From: Candidatus Micrarchaeota archaeon
GTDB taxonomy: Archaea > B1Sed10-29 > B47-G15
Length of the DNA stretch: 64,000 bases
Reading direction: 5' to 3'
NCBI GenBank assembly: GCA_003660975.1
Contig: QMVG01000001.1
Coordinates: 64,001 to 128,000, forward strand
Under the pieces are notes generated by a model, which had not been told where the DNA came from, made no database searches, and saw only the letters and a program-made list of their open reading frames with translations. Every line of letters begins with the position of its first letter. The stretch's first letter is position 1. Made by a program: the position numbers and the translations under genes. Below, piece by piece: positions 1,468 to 55,111 of this stretch.

Positions 1468-2178
1468 TATCTCTACTTTTATGTTTGGGTCTCCAGCTGC
1501 TACCCTCTGCTTGAACAAAGTAAGATTTGCTGTCAAACCTATGCTTCCGTAGTGCATCGGGATAACAATTTTAGGTTTTATCTCTACAGCTGCTTCAGCT
1601 GCCTCGGTCTCGTTCATTGTATATGTGCCTCCAACAGGCAGCAGAGCAATATCTATGTTTTGAAGTTTGGACATCTCTGGAATCTTATCAGTATCACCAG
1701 CTTGATAGATGTTAACCCCGTTAATGTTTATTACGAAGCCAAGCCAGCCATTTTCCTTGGGATGGAAATTTTTATCTATGTTGTATGCAGGCAGAGCTGT
1801 TATTGAAACCCCCATGATGTTCAAAGTATCCCCAGGTGCCATGAACCTTATATCTCCTCCAAGCTCTGTCAACTTGTCGGCACAGTCCTTTGTAGTCACT
1901 ATTACTGTGTTGTCTTTCTTCAGCTTCTTCACGCTCTCAGGATCACAGTGGTCATAGTGGCTATGTGTTATTAATATCAAGTCGGCCCTATCGTTATGGT
2001 CTGAGATGTTATACGGATCGGTGGCGATGGTCAGGTCTCCCGACTTTATAATGAAACTGGCATGGCCCAACCACTTGACCTCAACTCCTTCATATATCAT
2101 AGCAATTCCCTCCTCTTTTTCAAAGCAACCAGCAAAGATCAAAAAGGTAATGATGATTGCAATAGCAACACTTTTCAT
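1450..2178 (-). CDS. MBL-fold metallohydrolase (UlaG/Lactamase_B_3-like) with N-terminal lipoprotein-like signal
   Basis: WLGHAS, THSHYDH, AGDT, PVGG-YTM and IPMHYG motifs. Hydrophobic N-terminus ending in FAGC. Confidence 0.85.
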   Translation of the reverse strand: MKSVAIAIIITFLIFAGCFEKEEGIAMIYEGVEVKWLGHASFIIKSGDLTIATDPYNISDHNDRADLILITHSHYDHCDPESVKKLKKDNTVIVTTKDCADKLTELGGDIRFMAPGDTLNIMGVSITALPAYNIDKNFHPKENGWLGFVININGVNIYQAGDTDKIPEMSKLQNIDIALLPVGGTYTMNETEAAEAAVEIKPKIVIPMHYGSIGLTANLTLFKQRVAAGDPNIKVEILEPSA

Positions 2179-2266
2179 CTGTTATCTTATATGTCTTTTG
2201 ACTTATTTTTTAATTTCCCAAAAGCACTAGGTTTTTATAATGAGCATGTAATAAAAATACAAAGAA

Positions 2267-2339
2267 AGTCCCGTAGTCTAGTGGCCAAGGATTCGGGGCT
2301 CTGGACCCCGAGACGGCGGTTCGAATCCGCCCGGGACTA
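2267..2339 (+). tRNA. tRNA-Gln(CTG)
   Basis: Acceptor AGTCCCG/CGGGACT, anticodon arm CGGGG-CT-CTG-GA-CCCCG, T-loop TTCGAAT. Confidence 0.95.
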
Positions 2340-2341
2340 TT

Positions 2342-2469
2342 GTCCGTTGCGCCGGACCAACGCATGGGATCTTCGATCCCATATGCTGTGATTGGCTTTG
2401 AAAAAGCCGCGTGCGGCTTGCGGACATGGGATCTTCGATCGTCCGTTGCGCCGGACCAACGTATGGGAT
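2342..2469. repeat. GC-rich composite palindromic repeat behind tRNA-Gln
   Basis: GTCCGTTGCGCCGGACCAACGYATGGGAT at 2342-2370 and 2441-2469 (1 mismatch). CATGGGATCTTCGATC at 2363-2378 and 2425-2440. Several hairpins. Confidence 0.85.
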
Positions 2470-2475
2470 GAGAAT

Positions 2476-2991
2476 ATGAGAAGGAAAAAGAAATTTACGG
2501 TAAAGCCCTTAAAAGAATACGATGCGACAAGGAAGGAATTGGAAGCTTTTTTTAGAGGAGCCAGGTGGTTTGACAGCTTGAGCAAAGCTGAAAAAGAAAA
2601 GGTCTTGGACGAGGTTATGAGAGATCCAAAAAACAAATGGCTTATAGAGGAGATGAGAAAAGCAGTTATTGACAAGGCAGCTTTGAAGGAAGAGCTATTA
2701 AAAAAAGCAAAGGAAGAGGAAAAGGAATTTGCTAAAAATGAAAAAGCTGCAATGGAATTGGTGAAAAGGCTAGAAAAAGAGGAAGAGATTAGATATAGAA
2801 TAAAAAAAGACCCCTGGTTTTTAGAAAAGGAATTTGAAAATTCCATCATATATCAGCAATTAAACAGCAGGGGAAGGGAGAAATTTATAAAGTGGCTGGA
2901 GAAAAATCCACACAAAGTAATAGAATTAGAAGAGAAAAAGGCAGATATAGAGGATGTTGTTATTGATTTTCTAAAAGAAACAAACAAATGA
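2476..2991 (+). CDS. hypothetical Lys/Glu-rich helical protein
   Basis: ORF with genome-typical composition from ATG 2476. The upstream extension in the ORF track runs through the repeat. Confidence 0.7.
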   Translation: MRRKKKFTVKPLKEYDATRKELEAFFRGARWFDSLSKAEKEKVLDEVMRDPKNKWLIEEMRKAVIDKAALKEELLKKAKEEEKEFAKNEKAAMELVKRLEKEEEIRYRIKKDPWFLEKEFENSIIYQQLNSRGREKFIKWLEKNPHKVIELEEKKADIEDVVIDFLKETNK

Positions 2992-2992
2992 G

Positions 2993-3065
2993 GGGCCCGT
3001 GGTCTAGCGGTTAGGACACTGCCTTCACACGGCAGAGATCAAGGGTTCAAATCCCTTCGGGCCCA
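2993..3065 (+). tRNA. tRNA-Val(CAC)
   Basis: Acceptor GGGCCCG/CGGGCCC, anticodon arm CTGCC-TT-CAC-AC-GGCAG, T-loop TTCAAAT. Confidence 0.95.
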
Positions 3066-3066
3066 T

Positions 3067-3240
3067 TTTTGCAAGCTTTTTTCACAGTTATCACAGAAAA
3101 AAGCTTATTTTTGCTTAAGCTTTTTCCATAGTTTTCACAGAAAAAAGCTTAGGTCGAAGACCATGACCCCATGGCATTTATTTCGCTTAAGCCTTTAGCG
3201 TAGCGATAATAGAAAAGGCTTAAATTCCTTCGGGCCTATT
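3067..3240 (+). repeat. array of three ~42-bp palindromic units plus one hairpin, ending in a copy of the tRNA-Val 3' end
   Basis: Units at ~3067-3106, 3108-3150 and 3181-3221 (AAGCYTTT...AGAAAARGCTT). AAATTCCTTCGGGCCTATT (3222-3240) matches 3049-3067 with 2 mismatches. Confidence 0.85.
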
Positions 3241-3302
3241 GTCTGTTTTGTTGGAAAGATCAAGACATAGATTTTATATATCCACTGCTTCTAAATTAGA
3301 GC

Positions 3303-3761
3303 ATGGCAAAAGAGAACATAGTGGATGAATTAGACATAAAGATACTGAAAGAGTTGCGAAGGGATGGTAGGTTGTCATTTAGGCAGCTTGCTAATAGGTT
3401 AAATGTGGCAACAGGTACAATACAAAAAAGGATAAAGCGCATGGAGGACCTTGATATAATAAGGGGCTACCATGTTAGCATTGACTTTGAAAAGTTGGGT
3501 TACAAAATCACGGCTGTTGTGGGCGTGATAGGCAACCAGGAGAGCATCATAAAGCTGGAAGATAAGCTCAAAAAAATGAGCAACGTGATAGGGCTGTATG
3601 GTGTTACTGGAGAATACGACCTCCTTATTGCAGCTAAGTTCAAAACAATAACTGAATTAAATGACTTTATAAGGAAGCACTTTAATATTAAGGGAGTAGA
3701 CAAAACAGTAACTTTCATAGTGCTACAAACAGTCAAAGAGGAACGTGGTCTCTTTGAGTGA
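3303..3761 (+). CDS. Lrp/AsnC family transcriptional regulator
   Basis: DELDIKILKEL..DGR HTH and VTGEYDL RAM-domain motif. Confidence 0.93.
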   Translation: MAKENIVDELDIKILKELRRDGRLSFRQLANRLNVATGTIQKRIKRMEDLDIIRGYHVSIDFEKLGYKITAVVGVIGNQESIIKLEDKLKKMSNVIGLYGVTGEYDLLIAAKFKTITELNDFIRKHFNIKGVDKTVTFIVLQTVKEERGLFE

Positions 3762-3769
3762 GGGGTAAT

Positions 3770-5224
3770 ATGTTTAATTTCAGCATAGAGGATGCAAATG
3801 TTGTTATGAGGGTGTTTGGGCAGGTAATGATGTATTTTTCTCTTGCTTTTGTTTTTCCTCTGGCTGTGGCCTTGCTGTATGGAGAAGGATTGAAAGGAGT
3901 TTTTATGTATGCCCTTCCAGCTATGCTGTCTTTTTTTCTCGGCTTCTGCATTTACAAATGCATTAAAAGCAAAGTAGAGGTAAAGAGCATACATGCAATG
4001 ACTGCTATAACACTTATATGGATAGTCCTGCCTCTAATAGGTGCTCTGCCTCTCGCTTATTATGGTTTGGACTATGTAGATGCGTACTTTGAAAGCGTGT
4101 CTAGCCTAACCACTACAGGCCTAACAGTTATCAACTCGCCAGACGTTCTGCCAAAAAGCATCATATTCTGGAGAAGTTTTGAAGGTTGGATAGGAGGAGC
4201 AGGCATAGTGGTGCTCGCTCTGATAGGTATATTTCATTATGTCAGTGCAGCTCGGCTTATGGAGGCAGAGGGCAGGGAAGACAGGTTAAGACCTAGCATA
4301 CTGCATACTGTTAAGAGAATCTGGTGGATTTACGGCATATTGACAGGAATAGGTGTTATTCTTTTGCTCTCCTCCCACCTCTCTGTTTTTGATGCTGTGA
4401 ATTACTCTATGAGTGCCATAAGCACAACAGGCACACAAATGAAAAATGAGGGAATTATGGGGCTCAACAATTTAGGCATGGAAGTGGCCCTTATGGTAAT
4501 CATGGTAATGGGTGCGATGTCATTTGCGGTTCACCACAGATTCCTGAGCGGAGACATAAAAGCGTATTTCAAAGACGTTGAGGTGAAAACCTTTTTTGTT
4601 TTCGCTGTTCTAGGCATTCTACTACTTATTCCGTCATTTTCAAGCATAAGCTATTACGGAAATCAAGCCCTGAGACACGCCTCATTCTATACGATAAGTG
4701 CCCTCACAGCAGGGGGCTTTGAGTCCATGCCTAGAGGTTTGTTCAATGACTATAGCAAGTTAATACTCTCCATATTGATGTTCATAGGTGGAGCTGCTGG
4801 TTCAACTGCTGGAGGTATCAAATTAATAAGGGCATATGCCTTCCTTAAGATAATCTATTGGCGCATTAAGAGCATGACACTTCCAAGCAACGCTTATTTC
4901 CCAAAGAAAATAGCTGGTCAGGAAATTAATGAAAAGCAAATGGGTTTCATAACAACGTTTATAATATTGTATTTCATAGCTATAATAATAGGCAGCATTG
5001 TCATAATGCTGACTGTTCCAAATGCAAGTGCAATGGACGCTGTGTTTGAAGTCACCAGTGCACAAGGCAATGCAGGTATCAGCATTGGCATAACATCGGC
5101 AAACATATCCAAGATTGCTAAAATTAGCCTTTGTGCTAATATGATTGTGGGCAGGATAGAGATAATACCTTTGATGGCTGCTCTTGCATTTATACTGAAA
5201 ATCAAAGTAAGGAGGAATAGATGA
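3770..5224 (+). CDS. trkH: Trk potassium uptake membrane subunit
   Basis: Multi-TM protein with FESVSSLTTTG, GGAAGSTAGGIK, SAQGNAG and GRIEI motifs. Confidence 0.92.
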   Translation: MFNFSIEDANVVMRVFGQVMMYFSLAFVFPLAVALLYGEGLKGVFMYALPAMLSFFLGFCIYKCIKSKVEVKSIHAMTAITLIWIVLPLIGALPLAYYGLDYVDAYFESVSSLTTTGLTVINSPDVLPKSIIFWRSFEGWIGGAGIVVLALIGIFHYVSAARLMEAEGREDRLRPSILHTVKRIWWIYGILTGIGVILLLSSHLSVFDAVNYSMSAISTTGTQMKNEGIMGLNNLGMEVALMVIMVMGAMSFAVHHRFLSGDIKAYFKDVEVKTFFVFAVLGILLLIPSFSSISYYGNQALRHASFYTISALTAGGFESMPRGLFNDYSKLILSILMFIGGAAGSTAGGIKLIRAYAFLKIIYWRIKSMTLPSNAYFPKKIAGQEINEKQMGFITTFIILYFIAIIIGSIVIMLTVPNASAMDAVFEVTSAQGNAGISIGITSANISKIAKISLCANMIVGRIEIIPLMAALAFILKIKVRRNR

Positions 5225-5874
5225 TGTATATTATAATAATTGGTGCTGGAAAGGTTGGCTACCACCTGACAAAAATTCTATTAGAAGAGGGACATGATGT
5301 AGTAGTCGTTGACAAGGATGGTGATGTTTGTCATGAAATCGCCACTGAGCTGGAGTGTGTTACTATAAGGGGCGACGGCACTAAACCGAGAATTTTAGAG
5401 GAAGCAGGCATATATGAAGCAGATGCCATTGTTACATTAACTGGCTCTGATGAGACAAACTTAATCGCATCCTTGACAGCAAAGCAGATGGGCGCCAAGT
5501 ATGTAGCTACAAGATTGGGAGCACTGCATTACGATGAAGAGATACTAAAAAAGCTAGGTCTTGACCTTGTCATATATCCTGAAGCAGCTGCTGCAGGATA
5601 CATAGCAGAGCTGATTACCAAACCAGATGTTTTGGACCTGGCTTTCATAAGCAGGGGAGATGCTGAAATACTTGAGCTGGAAGTGAAACCAAAGTCGAAG
5701 ATTGCTGGCAAGGAGATCTCTGAAATAGAGCAACCCCAAGGCACAGCAATCATTGCGATAATTGAAAAGGGGCGGCTTGTAATACCAAAGCCTAGCAGAA
5801 AGATAAAGGCAGGAGACAAAGTATTAATACTGGCAAAAAAAGAAAAGGTCAAAGAAATAAAGAAGATGATATGA
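5221..5874 (+). CDS. trkA: Trk NAD-binding regulatory subunit
   Basis: IIGAGKVG Rossmann motif, GDGT, TrkA-C domain; adjacent to trkH. Confidence 0.93.
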   Translation: MMYIIIIGAGKVGYHLTKILLEEGHDVVVVDKDGDVCHEIATELECVTIRGDGTKPRILEEAGIYEADAIVTLTGSDETNLIASLTAKQMGAKYVATRLGALHYDEEILKKLGLDLVIYPEAAAAGYIAELITKPDVLDLAFISRGDAEILELEVKPKSKIAGKEISEIEQPQGTAIIAIIEKGRLVIPKPSRKIKAGDKVLILAKKEKVKEIKKMI

Positions 5875-5898
5875 AGCAAGAACAGGGTGGTAGAAGAA

Positions 5899-6351
5899 AT
5901 GACAGATAGAATTTTGTTTGATGCAAAAATAGGAAACTGGGTCTGTATAAAAAAAGGCATAATTGACCAAGACACAGAGGCAATGGAAGTGGCCCGCTTG
6001 CTGGCGAGCATTCATGACTCAATGGACAGAAAGATATGGGAGTTTGTGGGAAAAGAGATTAACACAGAGGAGTTAGATAAAATAGCTTATGAAATAACAG
6101 GTGCCACATACAACGAAAAGAAGAAAAGCTGGGAGCTTAAAGGAAGGAAAACTGAGCAGCAAATTGCCTCTGCCCTTGCAAAGCTAAACTCTCCTGCAAC
6201 CACAAGAAAAATAAATGTAAAGGGAAAGCAAGCCCTTGAAATAGCAAAAGCGTATTTAACAAGAAAAGTACTTACTTTGCTTGGTTTCAGGATAGAGCTG
6301 GACCCAAAGATAGTAGAGAAATATATAGAGGAAAAGTCAAAATTAGCATGA
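5899..6351 (+). CDS. conserved archaeal protein, DUF2666-like
   Basis: N-terminus (DRILFDAKIGNWVCIKK...EVARLLASI) resembles DUF2666 proteins as recalled; not searched. Confidence 0.6.
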   Translation: MTDRILFDAKIGNWVCIKKGIIDQDTEAMEVARLLASIHDSMDRKIWEFVGKEINTEELDKIAYEITGATYNEKKKSWELKGRKTEQQIASALAKLNSPATTRKINVKGKQALEIAKAYLTRKVLTLLGFRIELDPKIVEKYIEEKSKLA

Positions 6352-6356
6352 TTTTT

Positions 6357-6431
6357 GGGGCTATAGGGTAGTCTGGTCCATCCTCCCGGCTTTGGGAGCC
6401 GGGGACCCCAGTTCAAATCTGGGTAGCCCCA
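6357..6431 (+). tRNA. tRNA-Pro(TGG)
   Basis: Acceptor GGGGCTA/TAGCCCC, anticodon arm CCGGC-TT-TGG-GA-GCCGG. Confidence 0.95.
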
Positions 6432-6437
6432 TCATAA

Positions 6438-6522
6438 GCGGGGGTGCCGGAGCCTGGAAAACGGGCAGGACTTAAGATCCTGTGGCTTAGTGCCTACGAG
6501 GGTTCAAATCCCTTCCCCCGCA
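6438..6522 (+). tRNA. tRNA-Leu(TAA)
   Basis: Anticodon arm CAGGA-CT-TAA-GA-TCCTG, long variable arm, T-loop TTCAAAT. Confidence 0.95.
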
Positions 6523-6537
6523 TAGGCAGGAATTTTT

Positions 6538-7377
6538 ATGAAGCTTATCTACTCCAAGAAATGTGAGGAATATTGGTCTGAAGGCCACCCAGAATCACCT
6601 GATAGGACTAGGATAATCCACGAGCACTTGAAGGAAAAGGGCTTCAGTTTCACAGAGCCAAAGCAAGCAAGTGATAGAGACATCTTGAAAGCACATAGTA
6701 AGAGCTTGATAGAAAGCATAAAAAATAACAGTTTTTTTGACTATGACACGCCCAACATAGAAAATATTTATAACTATGCAAAACTATCGGCAGGGGCTGC
6801 TATCACAGCTGCGAAGCTCAGTAAGGATGAATTTGCTTTTTCTCTCATGAGACCACCAGGTCATCACGCTGGAAAGAACAGCCTTGGCGGTTTTTGTTAC
6901 CTAAACAATATCGCCATTGCTATAAAGGGCTTAGGGGAAAGGGCTGCAATACTGGATATAGACCTACACCACGGCAATGGAACGCAGGACATTTTTATGA
7001 GAGATAAAAATGTCTTGTATGTCTCCCTCCACAGGGGAGATATCTATCCTGGCACAGGCCATGAGAGCATTGAAAATTGTATCAATTACCCTTTTTACGA
7101 AAGAGTTGGAGAGAAGGAATACTTAAGAACAGTTGATGAAGCAATAAAAAAGATTAAGGAATTTAATGCTAAAGTAATAGGCATCTCCCTGGGCTTTGAC
7201 ACATATAAAAAGGAATTTCTGGCAGGTGACAGGGGCATGAACTTAGAGCTCTCAACATACAAGGAAATAGCAAAAAGGATAAAGCAATTGGAAATTCCAA
7301 GCTTTGCTGTATTGGAGGGAGGATACCATGAGGATCTCGGTCTTTGCGCAGAGAAGTTTTTGGAGGTTTGGGAATGA
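6538..7377 (+). CDS. Zn-dependent histone deacetylase/AcuC family deacetylase
   Basis: HPESPDR, RPPGHHA, GFCYLNN, DIDLHHGNGTQ, GFD and LEGGY motifs. Confidence 0.93.
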   Translation: MKLIYSKKCEEYWSEGHPESPDRTRIIHEHLKEKGFSFTEPKQASDRDILKAHSKSLIESIKNNSFFDYDTPNIENIYNYAKLSAGAAITAAKLSKDEFAFSLMRPPGHHAGKNSLGGFCYLNNIAIAIKGLGERAAILDIDLHHGNGTQDIFMRDKNVLYVSLHRGDIYPGTGHESIENCINYPFYERVGEKEYLRTVDEAIKKIKEFNAKVIGISLGFDTYKKEFLAGDRGMNLELSTYKEIAKRIKQLEIPSFAVLEGGYHEDLGLCAEKFLEVWE

Positions 7378-16232: not shown

Positions 16233-16304
16233 GCCTCAGTAGCACAGCGGTAGTGCGGCCGCCTTGTAAGCGGCAGGTCGAGGGTTCGAATCCCTCCTGA
16301 GGCT
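16233..16304 (+). tRNA. tRNA-Thr(TGT)
   Basis: Acceptor GCCTCAG/CTGAGGC, anticodon arm GCCGC-CT-TGT-AA-GCGGC. Confidence 0.95.
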
Positions 16305-16401
16305 TTTATGGCCGGAGGCCATAACTTTGAGGCTTCAGTTTCGCTTAAGCATTTACCATAGGCAATAACAGAAAAGGCTTAAATCTCTCCTGAGGCTTTT
16401 A
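16304..16401 (+). repeat. hairpin repeat plus 42-bp palindromic unit plus copy of the tRNA-Thr 3' end
   Basis: TTTTATGGCCGGAGGCCATAAC (16304-16325). Unit 16339-16380 is homologous to 3181-3221. AATCTCTCCTGAGGCTTTTA (16382-16401) matches 16289-16308 with 1 mismatch. Confidence 0.88.
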
Positions 16402-17299: not shown

Positions 17300-17321
17300 T
17301 TTTATGGCCGAAGGCCATAAC
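17300..17321. repeat. second copy of the 22-bp hairpin repeat
   Basis: TTTTATGGCCGAAGGCCATAAC. Differs from 16304-16325 only in the loop. Confidence 0.9.
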
Positions 17322-54996: not shown

Positions 54997-55111
54997 GGGG
55001 CCATAGGGTAGCCTGGTCCATCCCCCCAGCTTGGGGTGCTGGTAACCCGAGTTCAAAAAGAGGGGCCCCACTCAGGAGAGAGGACCTCTCTTGAAAATCT
55101 CGGTGGCCCCA
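54997..55111 (+). tRNA. tRNA-Pro(GGG) with non-canonical 40-nt intron at 59/60 (55058-55097)
   Basis: Anticodon arm CCAGC-TT-GGG-GT-GCTGG. Strict BHB in the T-arm; removing the intron restores CCGAG-TTCAAAT-CTCGG. Confidence 0.92.

Follow-up and report, generated by a model that had tools for sequence, protein, structure and literature searches.

The window analysed in this work is a 64,000-nt stretch (C1:64001-128000) of the genome of a Candidatus Micrarchaeota archaeon, hereafter G000. Behind two of its tRNA genes, tRNA-Val(CAC) and tRNA-Thr(TGT), the window carries members of a family of short hairpin-forming repeats, which in the whole assembly is confined to the 3′ flanks of tRNA genes. 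The central member of the family is a composite of about 75 nt, the A element, consisting of a palindrome with a GAA loop, a block of consensus GGGGC-TTYA and one hairpin unit. A elements are present at eight loci, and at six tRNAs (Leu-CAG, Val-CAC, Thr-TGT, Val-GAC, Leu-CAA, and Ala-TGC) the element is followed by a copy of a tRNA 3′ end. Tentatively, the A element is read here as a non-autonomous DNA insertion element which targets tRNA loops and duplicates its target. An earlier note made from the letters of the window alone, here called the original prediction, had regarded the 42-nt hairpin unit as the mobile entity; the analysis assigns this role instead to the composite of about 75 nt.

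The G000 assembly comprises 1.33 Mb in 130 contigs and is 89.7% complete, which limits all the statements of absence made for it below. In its main contigs, G+C is about 41% and the tRNAs are of archaeal type, with no CCA encoded in the gene. Numerous small contigs (C6, C22, C96, C108, C109, and others) have 50-65% G+C or CCA-encoding tRNAs (C6, C108, and C109) and are probably foreign to the archaeal genome.

Copies of tRNA ends, or tail copies, were searched with the last 16 nt of each of 48 tRNAs found by ARAGORN, allowing up to 2 mismatches, over 3 kb on either side of the gene and on both strands. On the archaeal contigs this search gave seven matches at six tRNAs (Leu-CAA has two), all on the same strand, downstream, and at most 180 nt away, and none upstream or on the reverse strand; tail copies behind tRNAs exceed chance. 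The copy always starts at A58, immediately after the unit end ...GGCTTA, and stops 0-4 nt beyond the discriminator. The lengths are 19 nt for Ala, 19-20 nt for Thr, 19 nt for Leu-CAA, 18 nt for Leu-CAG, 18 nt for Val-CAC, and 16 nt for Val-GAC, that is, 19 ± 1 nt where the locus is clean (four cases) and 16-18 nt behind the two tRNA-Val genes, with a 3′ border blurred by T-rich trailers.

The duplicated part had been predicted to follow the target and not the element. Indeed, the best or tied-best match of six of the seven tail copies, among the 44 ARAGORN tRNAs of the main contigs, is the adjoining tRNA; the copy behind Leu-CAG has 1 mismatch to its neighbour and is identical to Leu-CAA. The search for cognate 3′ duplications behind further tRNAs, proposed as a check, was run and brought the number to six loci, all breaking at A58. 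The argument that a copied trailer in place of CCA speaks for a duplication at the DNA level is not decisive, since a primary transcript would also be compatible as the source of the copy. At Leu-CAA (L006, C4:56350-56900) and Leu-CAG (L001, C1:55700-56400), inverted 11-nt copies of the tRNA's own T-stem/acceptor strand are also observed, which form foldbacks with the direct copy. At these Leu loci one B unit (a unit type described below) is inverted, and the breakpoints lie within the GCTTAAGC palindrome. Further look-alikes of tRNA ends were seen on contigs C44 and C75.

A profile hidden Markov model (HMM) of the hairpin unit, scanned over the whole assembly at E<0.01, retrieved 21 copies of 42-44 nt (19 full and 2 partial). 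All of them lie in ten loci downstream of tRNAs and none elsewhere in the assembly, in agreement with the predicted multi-copy family bound to tRNA 3′ flanks. Twenty of the 21 units are oriented as the tRNA and one is inverted. The exact unit pattern occurs 15 times in G000, against zero occurrences of a reversed control pattern, and has no match in 30 other genomes of the phylum. Units are present behind nine of the 11 tRNAs whose T-arm 3′ side reads AATCCCT and behind none of the 33 others (Fisher p = 8e-8, for a grouping defined post hoc, after the data had been seen); the unit-bearing tRNAs are only those with the T-arm GRGGG-TTCRAAT-CCCTY. With the same proviso on the grouping, these counts support the expectation that several target tRNAs share a T-arm. 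The two AATCCCT tRNAs without units are packed tightly in operons: a tRNA-Pro ends 4 nt ahead of tRNA-Leu(TAA) and a gene starts about 15 nt after it, and tRNA-Ala(GGC) belongs to the rRNA operon.

The units are of two types. B units contain TTTTTGC and GCTTTTT(T), which places runs of at least five T on the sense strand directly behind the gene, and they are probably kept as oligo-T terminators of tRNA transcription in their present orientation. A-type units, each part of an A element, have no T5 run. B units occur in tandem with a 44-nt period, and their arrays were most likely multiplied by slippage. The arrays had been attributed to repeated insertions, each with its own duplication; this attribution was abandoned, as B units lack a tRNA copy and resemble products of slippage. 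The flank of tRNA-Thr(CGT) bears a degenerate palindrome and three units.

Since seven A elements align collinearly (mean column identity of 82%), a single origin of the composite followed by propagation is suggested. The right end of the element, ...GGCTTA, is always joined to T-loop position 57/58. The left palindrome exists in variants with paired changes (ATGGTC/GACCAT, ATGGCC/GGCCAT, and GGGACC/GGTCCC), and the unit stem differs on both arms between subfamilies (AAGCC/GGCTT vs AAGCT/AGCTT); as far as the alignments tell, the palindromes appear to be maintained through such paired changes. The GGGGC-TTYA block ahead of the A unit resembles the T-stem 5′ strand plus half of the T-loop. In RNAfold predictions its pairing partner is the T-stem/acceptor copy further downstream, with the unit hairpin enclosed (centroid structures of Ala-TGC and Leu-CAA, minimum free energy structure of Thr-TGT), and the pairing is absent from the fold of the Val-CAC locus. 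On account of this predicted pairing, the orphan fragment resembles a T-arm into which the unit has been inserted at 57/58. By our own count, the block has about 28% mismatches to the local T-arm, as compared to 1 mismatch in 74 nt for the tail copies at the same four loci; it is therefore borne by the element and not copied from the local tRNA. No Rfam family, RtT (RF00391) included, matched the seven element loci at E up to 1.

Other interpretations of the anatomy were rejected. The left palindrome was considered as a relic of the cognate anticodon arm, and its stems do not match the adjoining tRNAs. A second idea, that the spacer represents a minihelix's 5′ acceptor strand, fails for lack of complementarity to the copies, and the folds pair only GGGG with CCCTC. 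Finally, the view of the A element as an intron joining tRNA positions 1-57 to the downstream copy was dropped, given the poor junction pairing and the T-runs which the element contains at the Val loci. The GAA-triloop palindrome also occurs once in isolation, as TTATGGCCGAAGGCCATAA at 17302-17320 of the window, between convergent open reading frames (ORFs) and away from tRNAs.

The features of the two loci of the window are collected in Table 1. The coordinates and the junction (...GGCTTA/AAT) of the original prediction are right within 1-2 nt. The three hairpin units reported behind tRNA-Val are two B units and one A unit, and the unit behind Thr-TGT is indeed trailed by that tRNA's own 3′ end. 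The Val tail copy is present with the 2 mismatches described, its length being 18 nt and not 19 nt. At Val(CAC), B unit 1 shows T5-6 runs on the tRNA sense strand and is 91% alike to B unit 2; the A unit has 60% ungapped identity to B unit 1, with equal stem register. Palindrome P, shortened at this locus, reads TTATGGTCGAAGACCATAA in its full form at other loci, with a C-GAA-G triloop.

Table 1. Positions of the repeat features in the window (numbered from its first letter; other contigs where indicated).
Feature	Position	Strand	Basis and remarks
Type C repeats (second family)	2340-2470; C1:147710-147840; C2:4260-4391; C2:3160-3228		
tRNA-Val(CAC), intact	2993-3065	+	ARAGORN; T-arm AAGGG-TTCAAAT-CCCTT
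Val(CAC) target segment, A58 to trailer	3050-3067	+	sequence
B-type hairpin unit 1, TTTTTGC-AAGCTTTTTT...AAAAAAGCTTA	3066-3107	+	repeat search; unit HMM C1:67066-67107, E 6.6e-10
B-type hairpin unit 2	3108-3151	+	repeat search; unit HMM C1:67108-67151, E 4.1e-13
Left palindrome P, shortened form GGTCGAAGACCAT	3152-3164	+	comparison with Ala-TGC, Thr-TGT, and Leu loci
Spacer with degenerate T-stem/T-loop-like block ATGGC-ATTTA (consensus GGGGC-TTYA)	3165-3180	+	element alignment
A-type hairpin unit, TTTCGC-TTAAGCCTTT...AAAGGCTTA	3181-3222	+	repeat search; unit HMM C1:67181-67222, E 2.7e-11
Copy of tRNA-Val(CAC) A58-A73 + TT	3223-3240	+	repeats 3050-3067; 18 nt, 2 C-to-T differences
tRNA-Thr(TGT), intact	16233-16304	+	ARAGORN; target segment 16289-16308
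Palindrome P ATGGCCGGAGGCCAT	16308-16322	+	sequence; hairpin in predicted fold
Spacer with T-stem/T-loop-like GAGGC-TTCAG	16323-16338	+	alignment, predicted fold
A-type hairpin unit behind Thr(TGT)	16339-16381	+	unit HMM C1:80338-80381, E 1.7e-10
Copy of tRNA-Thr(TGT) A58-T73 + TTTA	16382-16401	+	repeats 16289-16308; 20 nt, 1 mismatch

As an insertion element, the A element would leave the tRNA whole, with the stretch from A58 to 0-4 nt past the gene end on both flanks of the element and an orphan 3′ fragment behind. The T-loop and the foot of the acceptor stem could each be broken, in a staggered manner and possibly on an extruded cloverleaf; hairpin DNA would be joined at the breaks, and fill-in would follow. 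Such breaks would give a repeat that has the loop as one border and the gene end as the other. Since the repeats of G000 and those of the L136 type, described below, both run from a loop to the gene edge, one may speculate that a structured, cloverleaf-like target with staggered breaks is recognized and not a fixed ruler.

The insertion reading is favoured because a fixed attP fails for five cognate repeats and slippage fails for one insert on four contigs. The same architecture is also met elsewhere: tRNA 5′-end copies surround look-alike units at L136, L169, and L170, and an A58 copy is present in G007, a genome of another family in the same order, where the tRNA-Phe gene precedes an unrelated, hairpin-rich insert of 150 nt with a 16-nt copy starting at A58 (one real case among 55 tRNAs in 30 loci). 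The near-identical strain L039, which departs from G000 precisely at a tRNA 3′ border, and the look-alike units that seem to move within tRNA genes, both described below, are counted in its favour as well.

Several observations weigh against an insertion element. The repeat length is not constant (16 to 20 nt). The element has internal hairpins and no terminal inverted repeats, its ends not being complementary, and in G000 neither a transposase nor a parent element was found, all HMM matches being the short copies themselves. The intron-bearing tRNA-Leu (C4:577-680) has an A element without a tRNA copy, and at Ile-GAT the A element is a shortened form. Variants of the element group according to their tRNA, those of Leu together and those of Val together, a pattern that also fits co-duplication or gene conversion. 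The repeat runs from the T-loop to just past the gene end, as with T-loop integrases. The unit profile of G000 retrieves none of the 71 look-alike loci of other genomes discussed below, and strain differences in the T-loop of tRNA-Thr(CGT), also described below, hint at T-loop recombination and not at simple insertion. Finally, no empty site or presence/absence allele of the A element was recovered from relatives, viral contigs, metagenomes, or reads. For this reason the mobility of the A element is read from its distribution, and a target-site duplication is not separable from the att repeats of integrase type.

BLAST of one A element against 60 relatives, outside the genus and the family, gave one weak match (E 0.009). 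The A-unit pattern had no match in viral contigs, and the strict A pattern none in the collection of other genomes' contigs. A pattern scan of metagenomes returned 56 loci, of which the A-element HMM matched only L039; the other 55 were taken as chance matches. L039 is a contig of a near-identical strain, with 99.4% identity over 1870 nt and 96.6% over 656 nt. Behind its tRNA-Thr(CGT), 366 different nt with a small ORF replace the palindrome remnant and two units (115 nt) of G000; the replacement extends from the tRNA trailer to where the last unit begins. Within the tRNA gene, the sole differences between the two strains are T-loop positions 57 and 59 (TTCGACT in L039 vs TTCAAAT in G000). This comparison implies that tRNA 3′ flanks are exchanged between strains, possibly with a crossover in the T-loop. 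The 366-nt segment (L039 1871-2236) has an ORF of about 93 codons, small-membrane-protein-like.

The reads of X3, X4, X5, and X7 contain related strains at low depth. Individual contigs of low depth carry an extra 8 nt, TTTTTGCT, after 3107 (X5), jump 49 nt from 3072 to 3122 (X4), or, in X3 and X7, seem to jump 108 nt from 3068 to 3177. With a likeness of 80%, such contigs may derive from the paralogous loci of Ala or Val-GAC or reflect assembly errors.

Relaxing the pattern so that it matched either type of unit gave 71 loci among the contigs of other genomes. Thirty-six of these belong to 17 DPANN-labelled metagenome-assembled genomes (MAGs), mostly Candidatus Aenigmatarchaeota, with one Nanohaloarchaea and several designated as uncultured archaeon; the 35 other loci were taken as chance matches. 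A T-run followed by G directly before the stem, a feature which is not in the pattern and is common to the G000 units, was found in 29 of the 36 archaeal loci and in 1 of the 35 others. On the tRNA sense strand the look-alike unit reads TAAGCC..GGCTTAAGC-CAAAA and lies inside tRNA genes, an occurrence that was not part of the original prediction. After excision of the segment beginning at the unit, ARAGORN recognized a junction-spanning tRNA at 11 of 15 loci tested and at 0 of 30 random control places; these junctions map to the T-loop, D-loop, or anticodon loop. By eye, T-loop halves (TTCAA/TTGAA and TTCGAA) are able to pair at the ends of the look-alike introns.

Two pairs of loci bear on the movement of these units. 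In one MAG, L120 and L125, which are different tRNAs, share 100 nt of T-loop intron at 97% and their exons do not align; in another MAG, the two class II tRNAs L115 and L131 have 96 nt in common at 100%. The look-alike units appear, from these comparisons, to be mobile within tRNA genes. At L134 and L167 the unit stands directly 3′ of the tRNA end, and at L136, L169, and L170 the unit plus a tail lies between two copies of the first 13 nt of the tRNA, a layout which resembles the 5′ mirror image of the G000 arrangement. At L116, L119, L133, and L160 (Aenigmatarchaeota), units in T-rich orientation end 0-3 nt before ATG and have loops with TATA-like TTTATAT; these units may double as promoters of leaderless genes.

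The gene-internal units are all A-rich on the sense strand, whereas the G000 units are T-rich and outside genes: all 21 stand behind complete tRNAs, and the arrangement typical of an archaeal tRNA intron, inside the gene and with removal restoring the tRNA, is not observed in G000. Because the G000 profile does not retrieve the other units, kinship is argued from the stem, the T-run flank, the size, and the association with tRNAs, which make it plausible. A wider and doubtful proposal is that the GCTTAAGC-stem unit is a DPANN-wide mobile palindrome entering tRNA genes at loops. In A-rich orientation it would survive as a non-canonical intron in the D-, anticodon, or T-loop; in T-rich orientation, or after staggered breaks reaching the gene end, it would leave an intact gene with an orphan tRNA end and take on a terminator role. 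Its driver would probably be a structure-specific nuclease or recombinase of the host and not a transposase of its own.

Among the alternatives, the A elements might be minimal scars of an integrative plasmid or virus, flanked by att sites in the manner of cis-mobilizable elements (CIMEs) with the repeat as the attL/attR identity block; a T-loop tyrosine integrase encoded elsewhere would move or exchange them in trans. This explanation is unlikely, and it retains real weight owing to the T-loop border, which is classic for such enzymes, and to the T-loop differences of L039, where Thr(CGT) departs from G000 only at positions 57 and 59, beside the replaced flank. In addition, all targets have the T-arm in common, which forms a natural inverted repeat with 7 bp as its spacer, and the right end of the element, GGCTTAAAT, resembles GGTTCAAAT. 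Excerpts of published reports describe comparable elements: in mycobacteriophage Ms6 the core is 26 bases and a 7-base T-loop is the likely exchange site (PMC1762012), and PYG1 of Pyrococcus yayanosii is a kilobase island with partial tRNA copies and 44-bp repeats (PMC9897764). G000 shares with these T-loop integrase elements an intact upstream gene, a downstream orphan fragment, and a direct repeat that begins within the tRNA and reaches its 3′ end; the 16-20-nt direct repeats starting at A58 at the six loci of G000 correspond to the last of these. In contrast to them, the insert of G000 is 75 nt and not kilobases, has no integrase, and is flanked by cognate, differing repeats at six tRNAs.

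One collinear 75-nt element is found at six tRNAs with five different cognate acceptor strands. A fixed attP would give the same repeat at every copy and chimeric, dead tRNAs at all targets except one; a single fixed-attP integrase therefore cannot explain the five different cognate repeats that flank the collinear element. Three Xer-like tyrosine recombinase genes (PF00589, Phage_integrase) do exist in G000, only on the small contigs C22, C124, and C14. None of them adjoins a unit, no tRNA-like att sequence was found on these contigs, and none attains an NCBIfam equivalog cut-off; C22, with 53% G+C, is probably foreign. Moreover, a double-stranded circle of about 95 bp is too stiff to be a likely intermediate. 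The SSV-type integrase family PF16795 had no match in G000.

The original prediction had placed the inserting enzyme outside the window, and the domain searches agree with this: the Phage_integrase matches are those on C22, C124, and C14, and Cas1 is on C4. The single Cas1 (PF01867, C4:60385-61227) comes right after an array of 37-nt repeats, has a Cas12f-like gene close by, and is 3.6 kb away from the Leu-CAA locus; no solo Cas1 was found in the assembly, and the Y1 transposase family PF01797 had no match. The CRISPR Cas1-Cas2 pair was rejected as the inserting enzyme, since a 37-nt repeat stands against a duplication of about 19 nt and the insert sequence is the same every time. The surrounding region (L080, C4:55000-74999, positions 2115-7246) contains the Cas12f-like gene, the CRISPR array, cas1, and two short ORFs, 0.4-5 kb downstream of the Leu(CAA) repeats.

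Just as improbable as the integrase scars is the view that the repeats are non-mobile terminator, insulator, or RNA-processing cassettes, spread and enlarged by slippage, unequal exchange, and gene conversion among tRNA loci with a common T-arm, the tail copies being by-products, in the manner of the RtT repeats behind E. coli tyrT described below. The two T5-6 runs per B unit on the sense strand, the orientation of 20 of the 21 units, and the 44-nt period of the tandem units would fit this view. So would the mosaic loci (the left part of the Ala element is Val/Ile-like and the right part Leu-like), the Leu-CAG copy of Leu-CAA type, the inverted segments breaking at the GCTTAAGC palindrome, and the element variants that follow tRNA type. 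Conversely, A-type units are without a T5 run, gene conversion needs two-sided homology and the common block is only about 10 nt, and slippage leaves unexplained the same 75-nt insert between cognate copies on four contigs. Furthermore, 30 genomes of this phylum lack the family and other phyla have it, a distribution that fits horizontal spread better than a functional module passed on by descent.

An RNA-mediated origin, in which a T-loop tRNA intron gave rise to the composite and the primary transcript (A58 to oligo-U) to the tail, both fixed through reverse splicing or template switching and reverse transcription, is very improbable: although the repeat stops 0-4 T beyond the gene, at the expected end of a primary transcript, the unit stands in a pseudo T-arm at 57/58, where real introns occur, the G000 tRNA-Pro(GGG) has a T-loop insertion of about 40 nt, and look-alike units are T-loop introns in other MAGs, the reverse transcriptase family PF00078 has no match in G000, units in the G000 orientation would terminate transcription if inside a gene, and the 5′-end duplications of L136, L169, and L170 start at tRNA position 1 and not at the transcript start.

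Several known systems resemble the insertion element proposed here in part. RtT repeats are located behind E. coli tyrT (RF00391), and each unit holds the last ~19 nt of the tRNA. They are alike in that the units behind a tRNA gene each have a tail copy of about 19 nt; they differ in that there is no sequence or Rfam match, and RtT is in one operon whereas the G000 family is at ten tRNA loci. Repetitive extragenic palindromic sequences and bacterial interspersed mosaic elements (REP/BIME), as well as the palindrome-associated transposable elements (PATEs) of IS200/IS605, are also short, multi-copy, hairpin-forming, non-coding intergenic elements; unlike them, the G000 family is restricted to tRNAs, has long duplications, and is accompanied by no Y1 or RAYT (REP-associated tyrosine transposase) gene in G000. 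Terminal inverted repeats and an autonomous parent, the features of a miniature inverted-repeat transposable element, were not found in G000.

Casposons, according to an excerpt of PMC4779613, insert in the 3′-distal part of tRNA-Leu of Methanosarcina with a duplication of 14-35 bp and inverted termini, and tandem insertions and solo remnants occur. A 3′-distal insertion in a tRNA would be common to casposons and the A element, as would a target-site duplication if the repeats of G000 are of this kind. Casposons have terminal inverted repeats and a solo Cas1, whereas in G000 no inverted termini are present and the only Cas1 is in the CRISPR locus. With regard to introns, transposed non-canonical tRNA introns have been reported in Thermoproteales (Fujishima et al. 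2010, as cited in passages of PMC3239211 and PMC4090602), and the mechanism of this "transposition" is stated to be unknown in a passage of PMC4090602. In ARMAN-2, tRNA-Pro(GGG) has T-loop introns and 56% of the tRNA genes are disrupted (excerpt of PMC3239211); in Caldiarchaeum, a recombinase-bearing 1.8-kb element has been linked to intron gain (excerpt of PMC3293823). The introns of Thermoproteales and ARMAN-2 resemble the DPANN look-alike units as near-identical short loop inserts in different tRNAs, and G000 itself has a T-loop insertion in tRNA-Pro(GGG), the tRNA affected in ARMAN-2. Compared with these introns, the G000 units are outside genes, in the opposite orientation, and with a duplicated tRNA end. 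No description of the hairpin family was found in the literature searched, subscription journals and supplements being outside the coverage.

The question addressed by these data is the origin of the non-canonical introns and gene fragments in archaeal tRNA genes, for which a 2026 census of Asgard tRNA introns states, in the part of the preprint considered, that "how they arrive remains open" (bioRxiv 10.64898/2026.10.13.758758). One DNA module would be seen in three states, that is, as trailer arrays, as an insert with a duplicated tRNA end, and as the core of DPANN introns at three loops. If this is true, the DPANN-wide palindrome would be the missing arrival route of archaeal tRNA introns and tRNA-gene fragments. 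The module offers a concrete sequence to trace across genomes and populations and a defined substrate for the bench. If the ordinary reading holds, the repeats are still an undescribed tRNA-specific family. In either case the unit family confuses the annotation of tRNAs and introns in small archaeal genomes.

A second repeat family, type C, is found behind tRNA-Gln(CTG), Gln(TTG), Val(TAC), and Glu(CTC) (Table 1). It contains a hairpin GTCCG..CGGAC, like the acceptor stem of Val-TAC, and TTC/GAA-triloop palindromes ATGGGATCTTCGATCCCAT. A variant of type C, TTGCAACG..GGCGATCTTCGATCGCC, follows the tRNA copies at both Leu loci.

Some tRNA genes of G000 and its relatives are themselves unusual. 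An apparent tRNA-Pro(GGG) at 54997-55111 of the window (C1:118997-119111) has an insertion of about 40 nt in the T-loop, at about 55056-55095. It was missed by ARAGORN and has no Rfam match at E<=0.01; its acceptor, anticodon, and T stems pair by eye. A tRNA-end match at C1:119096 turned out to be this gene. ARAGORN also mis-typed tRNA-Thr(CGT) as Ser-AGA; the intron of this gene (L005, C4:52850-53350, about 130-175) carries ATGATGA ... CTGA, like the C and D boxes of a guide small RNA. In G005, a genome of the same order, dense arrays in which tRNA genes are interspersed with partial tRNA matches (Rfam model positions 8-63 or 9-63) occur at L100/L112 (C1:1-2460) and L097 (C1:35409-38481).

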